Assembly (NCBI RefSeq): GCF_056712565.1
Contig: NZ_CM160072.1
Length of the DNA stretch: 64,000 nt
Direction: 5' to 3' (one strand)
Numbering within the stretch: the stretch's first letter is position 1; every line of letters starts with the position of its first letter. Below are positions 24,001 through 27,000 of the stretch, piece by piece. A program made the position numbers.

Positions 24001-27000
24001 AAATCTGATCGGCAATGGCGCTTATGTTCTTAAAGAGCGCGTAGTCAATGAAAAACTGGTCGTAGTGCCGAATACCCATTATTGGGATAACGCCAAAACG
24101 GTACTGCAAAAAGTGACCTTCCTGCCAATTAATCAGGAATCCGCAGCCACTAAGCGTTATCTCGCGGGGGATATTGATATCACCGAATCCTTCCCGAAAA
24201 ATATGTATCAGAAGTTGTTGAAGGATATTCCGGGGCAGGTTTATACGCCGCCGCAGCTCGGGACCTATTATTATGCGTTTAACACGCAAAAAGGGCCGAC
24301 GGCAGATCAGCGCGTTCGCCTGGCATTAAGTATGACGATAGATCGCCGCCTGATGACCGAAAAAGTGTTGGGGACGGGCGAAAAGCCAGCGTGGCATTTT
24401 ACACCAGATGTTACCGCGGGATTTACGCCGGAACCTTCGCCGTTTGAACAAATGAGTCAGGAAGAACTGAATGCGCAGGCAAAAACTTTGTTGAGCGCAG
24501 CTGGTTATGGTCCGCAAAAACCGCTGAAGTTGACGCTTTTGTATAACACTTCAGAAAACCATCAAAAAATTGCGATTGCTGTAGCATCGATGTGGAAAAA
24601 GAACCTGGGCGTAGATGTTAAATTGCAAAACCAGGAATGGAAAACCTATATCGATAGCCGTAATACCGGCAATTTTGATGTTATCCGCGCCTCGTGGGTA
24701 GGGGATTATAATGAACCCTCCACTTTCCTGACATTATTAACGTCAACGCATTCCGGGAATATTTCACGCTTTAACAATCCGGCATATGACAAAGTTCTGG
24801 CCCAGGCATCGACGGAAAATACCGTTAAAGCGCGTAATGCCGATTACAACGCGGCAGAAAAAATCCTCATGGAGCAAGCACCGATTGCACCAATTTATCA
24901 ATATACCAATGGACGATTAATCAAGCCGTGGCTGAAAGGTTATCCCATTAATAACCCTGAAGATGTGGCGTACAGTCGGACTATGTATATTGTGAAGCAT
25001 TAATGTGATGGGAACTGGCGTTACCCTTGTGGATAACGCCAGTGATGTCTGATTTAGCGACCCTGGTCCGGCGGTGTAATGTTATCCATATACAGCGTCT
25101 GGCTGGGGAAGGCAAAGTCCGCGCCGTGTGACTGTACAATATCGATAATCTTCAAATAAACGTCTTGCTGTGCGGCAAGCCACTCAGCCCATACCGTGGT
25201 TTTGGTAAAGCAATAAACCATAATATTTAATGACGAATCAGCAAACTGGTTGAAATAAACCAGTAAGGTTTGTCGCTGGTCGATGGCCGGGTGATTTTTC
25301 AGCATCTCACGTACGGCTTCGACAATAACGCCCACTTTTGCCGCATCCTCATAACGTAAACCAATGGTCGTGGTAATGCGCCGGTTGGTCATTCGTCCAG
25401 GATTTTCTACGCTGATCGACGAAAACAGCGAGTTCGGTACGTACAATGGACGATTATCAAAGGTCTTAATTTTGGTAATTCGCCAGCCAATTTCCGTTAC
25501 TGTACCTTCGATATTTCTGTCCGGTGAACGGATCCAGTCGCCAATACTGAAAGGACGGTCGAAATAGAGCATAATCCCGGAAAAGAAGTTACTCAGAATA
25601 TCTTTACCGGCCATACCGACAGCCAGACCACCAATACCACCAAAGGTCAACAAGCCAGAAAGGCTCATGCCGAAATGTTCGCCATAAAGCAGAACAAGCA
25701 CCACAATAATGGTGATTTTGATAATGCGCGACATGATCCGCGCACTGGTGATATCGCGACCTTTTTTAATCTGCTGTTTTTCAAACTGATTAATCAGCAG
25801 AAATAGCTTAATCGTCAGAATAACCGCAATCAGGGACGTACAGATAAAATCGATAACGCCTGGGGTGATAAATTTGAGTTTATAGTTTTCTATAACATAG
25901 TTAATGATGCTACCAACAGCACTAATAATTATGGTGTAGATTAAAAATTGCACCGCATGGAATAAAAATCCTTTTCTTTTACGATTTCCACGGCGAAACC
26001 AAAAGCTCATCAGAATCAATGCTGCGCAGCTACCGAAAATAATGACCAGATTAAGCGCATTATTTGTAAACAGTTCAGCGATCATTGTTTTATCAGGCTC
26101 CTCCAGATAATTGTCGTCATGCCGGAAACCCCTGGCGGGACTATTTTACCGCGACAATTCATTCAGATCATCAATAGTCAGGGAAGGAAGTAGCAACATT
26201 AGCTAACTAATCAATGCGTTGATTGTAAATCCAGCTAAGAGGTGAGATTTTCAGAGCAGACAACGGTGAAATGTCATGGTATTGTTACGTTTAGGTAACA
26301 AGAAATTTGTCTGCACAAGGATTACATCATGATTATGGCGAAACTGAAGTCAGCGAAAGGGAAGAAATTTCTCTTTGGTTTGTTGGCGGTTTTCATTATT
26401 GCGGCGTCGGTTGTGACTCGCGCGACCATCGGCGGCGTTATAGAACAGTACAATATTCCGCTGTCTGAGTGGACGACATCAATGTATGTGATTCAGTCAT
26501 CGATGATTTTTGTTTATAGCCTGGTCTTTACTGTGTTGCTGGCAATCCCGTTGGGAATTTATTTCCTTGGCGGCGAAGAGCAGTAAGTAAAAAATAGGCC
26601 CGATAACTCGGGCCTTGTCAGTTATTGAAGAGTCGTTAATCGTCTTCTTCGTCATCCAGTTCAACGGGTGTCTGATACTGGTCAGGTTTAATGACCAGCA
26701 GGTCGCAGCGAAGATGATCAATCACCTGTTCCGCCGTGTTGCCAAGGAATGCTGCTGAAATACCGGTGCGTCCGACCGTGCCCAGAACCACAATCCCCGC
26801 CTGTAAGTGCTCCGCCAAATCAGGAATCACCTCTTCGGGCAGACCTTTTTCTACGTGCGTCATGTTTTCATTAATGCCGAATTTCTGCCGCAGAGCTTTC
26901 ATTGCCAGCAAATGTTGCCCACGAATGGCATCGTTATAAACGCTCGGGTCAAATTCCGGCAGTTCAATCGCGATATTAATTGGCGTTACCGGATAAGCGC

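Follow-up and report, generated by a model that had tools for sequence, protein, structure and literature searches.

Uninterrupted ynaI-ynaJ intergenic region in a non-K-12 Escherichia coli chromosome, at the site where K-12 carries an IS5 copy

In Escherichia coli K-12, the spacer between the genes ynaI (b1330) and ynaJ (b1332) is occupied by an insertion sequence. The reference chromosome of MG1655 (NC_000913.3) annotates it as 'insertion sequence:IS5F' at 1396044-1397238 (1195 bp), carrying insH4 (b1331). A preliminary description of the DNA studied here had placed an IS5 (insH) at this position in K-12; the possibility that K-12 lacks one was checked against the reference annotation, and the element is there. 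Its junctions read, in short form, TTAG-CTAA on the left, the IS5 from GGAAGGTGCG to CGCACCTTCC, and CTAA-CTAATC on the right; at greater length they are CATTAG-CTAA, the IS5 from GGAAGGTGCGAACAAG to CTTATTCGCACCTTCC, and CTAA-CTAATCAATG. The insertion follows the standard IS5 pattern, that is, a YTAR target, a 4-bp duplication, a length of 1195 bp and 16-bp imperfect inverted repeats.

This copy has a place in the literature on K-12. Onstead et al. 2024 (PMC11677980) counted the 'ynaI/ynaJ' intergenic IS5 as copy 4 of 11 in BW25113, found it 100% identical to wild-type IS5 and deleted it experimentally; the IS5 flanking sites are given there as CTAA/CTAG, and transposase mRNA was detectable from the nmpC copy only. 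Earlier, Herring and Palsson 2007 (PMC2072959) described recombination between the b1331 IS5, to the right of ynaI, and a second IS5 to the left of ogt, which deleted ynaJ-uspE-fnr in a W3110 stock (CGSC 7167); similar fnr deletions were seen in MG1655 stocks. The mRNA of ynaI was detected in a K-12 strain by Edwards et al. 2012 (PMC3508906), who did not mention the IS5. A dependence of ynaI on RpoS is not supported by that study, in which a strong RpoS requirement is reported only for mscS and ybiO (Edwards et al. 2012, PMC3508906). In the literature searched, we found no report of an effect of the K-12 IS5 on the expression of ynaI or ynaJ.

The DNA analyzed here (the window, meaning the whole 64-kb stretch) holds the same two genes without the element. 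Its ynaI-ynaJ neighborhood is E. coli-like and includes mppA, uspE, fnr and ogt. The features of the locus are listed in Table 1, together with the small RNAs found elsewhere in the window. The interval for which the missing IS5 was first described coincides exactly with the spacer from the ynaI start codon to the ynaJ ATG (26329).

Table 1. Coordinates of the ynaI-ynaJ spacer, its borders and sites, and other located elements in the window
Feature	Position	Strand	Description	Basis
ynaI-ynaJ divergent intergenic region	26086-26328	none	243 bp, uninterrupted, 41% GC	
ynaI	25054-26085	-	343 aa, MscS-family low-conductance mechanosensitive channel; left border of the spacer	ORF call, type-strain annotation, orthologue of K-12 b1330
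ynaJ	26329-26586	+	85 aa, DUF2534 small membrane protein; right border of the spacer	ORF call, type-strain annotation, K-12 b1332
Unoccupied IS5 target, single-copy CTAA	26203-26206	none	Present on either side of IS5F in K-12; distance to the start codon 121 bp (inclusive) for ynaI, 126 bp for ynaJ	
TTAGCTAACTAA, three abutting YTAR tetranucleotides (TTAG-CTAA-CTAA)	26199-26210	none	All three match the IS5 target consensus YTAR	YTAR scan
Tandem CTAACTAA	26203-26210		Copies adjacent, nothing between them	
Second CTAA	26207-26210		Shared with K-12, where it stands on the right of the duplication	
Weak terminator-like hairpin	26120-26137	+	TGCCGGAAACCCCTGGCG then GGACTATTTT	
McaS sRNA	29566-29661	-	112.8 bits, well above threshold	Rfam
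FnrS	36528-36645	+	At its expected syntenic position	
MicC	43607-43727	+	At its expected syntenic position	

Searches of the spacer for traces of an insertion sequence returned nothing. The ORFs that reach into it are at most 53 aa long, and the longest two merely overlap ynaJ; an insH-like DDE transposase ORF (~326 aa) is absent from it, the flanking ORFs being ynaI and ynaJ. The inverted repeats within it amount to three trivial 8-nt pairs, and the IS5 terminal repeat GGAAGGTGCGAAYAAG has 0 matches across the 64-kb window with up to 2 mismatches allowed. The first reading, which saw neither a transposase ORF nor terminal repeats between the two genes, is thus borne out by each of these searches. 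In an Rfam search over the 64 kb, no RNA family was assigned to the spacer; McaS, FnrS and MicC lie elsewhere. What was observed is an absence, to which a chance statistic does not apply, and direct alignment was used to verify the IS5-free spacer.

Given the divergent arrangement of the genes, the spacer presumably holds the promoters of both. A simple consensus scan of 25900-26700 gave 0 sigma-70 promoter-like sites, a result that is uninformative as to their presence. Over the same interval, two terminator-like hairpins were found against a chance mean of 0.6 (sd 0.9), which is within chance expectation. The one listed in Table 1 sits immediately 5' of the ynaI start codon, on the strand opposite to that gene, and there is no plus-strand gene upstream of it to terminate.

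Alignment with K-12 locates the insertion point to the base. When the whole window was compared by blastn with 100 kb of K-12, window 20887-26206 matched K-12 1390724-1396043 and window 26203-29344 matched K-12 1397239-1400392. The alignment breaks at 26203-26206, and the 4-bp overlap of the two blocks is the CTAA that is duplicated in K-12. Both junction flanks of K-12 are collinear and orthologous with the window, where a single copy of the tetranucleotide, matching YTAR, stands at the junction. If the IS5 and one CTAA are taken out of K-12, a spacer of 243 bp is left, of which 241 positions are identical to the window; the two SNPs are at 26140 and 26247, each with A in the window and G in K-12. 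The loci share their orthologous position, these flanking bases and the CTAA itself, whereas the spacer measures 1442 bp in K-12 and 243 bp in the window. A search for the 4-bp duplication, together with alignment to K-12, had been suggested as the way to examine the locus, and it is by these means that the single target was located.

It is important to note that the window carries two CTAA copies side by side, which do not represent an element-separated duplication. The tandem was considered as an excision footprint and rejected: K-12 retains the second CTAA beside its own duplication, in the arrangement CTAA-IS5-CTAA-CTAA, and so the tandem pre-dates the IS5 insertion.

The distribution of the two states was assessed among 5426 complete E. 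coli genomes. Almost all of them (5422) have some match to an 801-bp region around the site, and in 5055 this region is uninterrupted. A contiguous 64-bp probe across the empty site is matched in 5007 genomes, O157:H7, BL21(DE3) and O25b:H4-ST131 among them, and a 64-bp probe for the left junction of K-12 (32 bp of flank and 32 bp of IS5) in 355. Approximately 11 other genomes have a disrupted 801-bp region. A synthetic junction query for an IS5 at the CTAA in the opposite orientation matched none of the 5426 genomes. Some genomes whose ynaI-side flank is identical to that of K-12 (100% over 200 bp) are still without the IS5.

The carriers of the K-12 junction were sampled by naming 60 of the 355, taken at even steps down the ranking, and all 60 have K-12 laboratory-strain names or K-12-sized genomes. 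The names include MG1655, DH1, DH5alpha, C600/EC600, J53, MC4100, TG1, XL1-Blue and EMG2, and derivatives from the Keio collection and from evolution experiments also occur. Two carriers, chosen for their non-laboratory host labels, were checked by alignment with MG1655 over 36-40 kb. THB42-F4 (host label 'dog', a transconjugant by its label) agrees with MG1655 at 99.998% of positions over 40 kb; for BH212 (host label 'Homo sapiens') the identity is 99.99-100%, and Rac has been cleanly excised. Judged from the 60 of 355 carriers sampled, the IS5 at ynaI/ynaJ appears to be a marker of the K-12 lineage.

Taken with the alignment, this distribution leads us to put at roughly 97% the probability that the spacer is the ancestral, never-occupied ynaI-ynaJ divergent promoter region and that the IS5 was acquired by the K-12 lineage only. 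An IS5 of 1195 bp would have inserted once, recently, in that lineage, at the CTAA equivalent to the one marked in Table 1. The insertion would have duplicated this tetranucleotide and set insH in the direction of ynaJ, with the ynaI start codon 121 bp from the IS5 on one side and the ynaJ start codon 126 bp from it on the other. In the window, the IS5 would never have inserted, so that ynaI and ynaJ would retain their native 243-bp shared upstream region. As a mechanism, nothing beyond this non-insertion is required.

The same bases could also have arisen by secondary loss, if an ancestor carried the IS5 and a precise excision restored the single CTAA, since such an excision would yield exactly the sequence observed. 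We regard this as very improbable. The empty site is present in at least 5007-5055 of the 5426 genomes, in unrelated lineages, and the occupied site, as sampled, in K-12 derivatives only; genomes that match K-12 over the 200-bp ynaI-side flank lack the element as well, and the tandem CTAACTAA is no footprint, K-12 having the same second copy. From parsimony among the E. coli genomes, which sets one gain in K-12 against many independent precise losses, we infer that the insertion is the derived state and that the empty site is not a secondary loss.

Short-read draft assemblies commonly lose or collapse insertion sequences. A multicopy element could in this way have been collapsed out of the assembly, in which case its absence would be unreal. 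Over 40.8 kb compared, the window matches the closed, complete chromosome of the type strain (NZ_CP033092.2) at 40,800 of 40,801 bases (99.998%). The gene order of the type strain DSM 30083 is like that of the window, with the one base different, and the 801 bases that surround the site show 100% identity to DSM 30083 = JCM 1649 = ATCC 11775 (NZ_CP033092.2, 2603154-2603954). By this identity, the window is that of ATCC 11775, the type strain of E. coli, or of a strain virtually identical to it. The same contiguous 64-bp junction occurs in more than 5000 other complete genomes, a collapse would not recreate a perfect single-copy target, and no IS5 end lies within the 64 kb. Of the two, an artefact of this kind is even less probable than secondary loss. 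The window having come from an engineered, IS-free K-12 derivative can be dismissed: in BW25113, Onstead et al. (PMC11677980) did remove this IS5 copy and the target site downstream of it, but the collinear blocks of the window are only 95.7-98.4% identical to K-12, with several large structural differences, and Rac, abgTBA-abgR and the fea/tynA/paa cluster are missing from the window, which holds extra genes not present in K-12. The preliminary description had offered a non-K-12 lineage or the pre-insertion state as its two readings, and both hold: the first by the near-identity to the type strain and the distance from K-12, the second by the 4-bp CTAA overlap at the alignment break and the uninterrupted region in 5055 genomes.

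The empty ynaI-ynaJ site is a correct finding, already known and ordinary. The IS5 at ynaI/ynaJ would mark the K-12 lineage rather than the species, and the practical weight of this is very small. Any K-12 measurement of ynaI and ynaJ regulation is made with the shared upstream region split by 1.2 kb of IS5, an arrangement unlike the natural one in ~93% of sequenced E. coli. The window, too, has ynaJ, uspE and fnr, the genes lost in the IS5-mediated deletions of K-12 stocks, on the right-hand side of the spacer. That deletion, however, uses two IS5 copies, of which the window has neither; because there is no IS5 in the window, the IS5-IS5 route to loss of fnr is closed in this strain.

A second element has been gained in the same spacer in another lineage. 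Strain FDAARGOS_943 (NZ_CP065615.1, 1125676-1126591) carries there a different IS5-family element of 916 bp, with the inverted repeat GGCTGTGTCCCTTAAT and a transposase with a programmed frameshift. The insertion is at the equivalent of window 26208-26209, with an apparent 2-bp TA duplication. Compared with the K-12 IS5, it falls in the same TTAGCTAACTAA cluster, 4 bp further right, and reads in the opposite direction; the element itself is different. Its junction is unique to one genome in a junction search among complete E. coli genomes, and the 916-bp element is present in 46 genomes, in up to 36 places per genome. The spacer of FDAARGOS_943 also has an 11-bp deletion.

A hotspot is hinted at by the insertions in K-12 and FDAARGOS_943, independent lineages in which two unrelated IS5-family elements have landed no more than 4 bp apart. 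That the TTAG-CTAA-CTAA cluster is a recurrent landing pad for IS5-family elements is nonetheless speculative with two events (n=2), and we consider it unlikely. Local DNA-structural or nucleoid-protein features have been proposed for the IS5 hotspots upstream of bglGFB, flhDC, glpFK and fucAO, and by analogy a landing pad here could reflect a feature of either kind. If the cluster did act in this way, its occupancy could rewire the expression of ynaI and ynaJ.

Several other differences from K-12 were observed along the window. At ~10378-11460 there is a ycjV-equivalent gene for an ABC transporter ATP-binding protein, annotated as intact in the type strain and a pseudogene in K-12 (ycjV/ymjB). 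Between mpaA and ycjY, at ~20227-20886, an intact SDR-family oxidoreductase gene takes the place that in K-12 is left with only the remnants ymjC/ymjD. Of the K-12 operon abgT-abgB-abgA-abgR, only pseudogene fragments are left at 29345-33367. Three genes that K-12 does not have lie between mcaS and smrA, at ~29732-33130: an AraC-family regulator, an HlyD-family gene and a DHA2 MFS efflux gene with a frameshift. The surroundings of McaS (29357-29767) are 81% identical to K-12, against ~98% for neighboring blocks, and form a locally divergent segment edging the abg replacement.

At 39631-41601 the window lacks the Rac prophage (23 kb in K-12); what is left next to ttcA is integrase and DUF1627 fragments and ~2 kb of non-K-12 DNA. 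Because Rac is absent, the spacing between FnrS and MicC is 7 kb here and 28 kb in K-12. At 52758, the ~18.8-kb feaR-feaB-tynA-paaZ...paaY cluster (K-12 1446271-1465074) is missing, and the K-12 alignment jumps from ydbL straight to the ydbA region. From that point to 56900, multiple overlapping blastn matches, 77-87% identical to fragment 1 of K-12 ydbA, indicate a long tandem-repeat array with a period of ~441 bp in an autotransporter like YdbA, whose gene is interrupted by IS2D in K-12.
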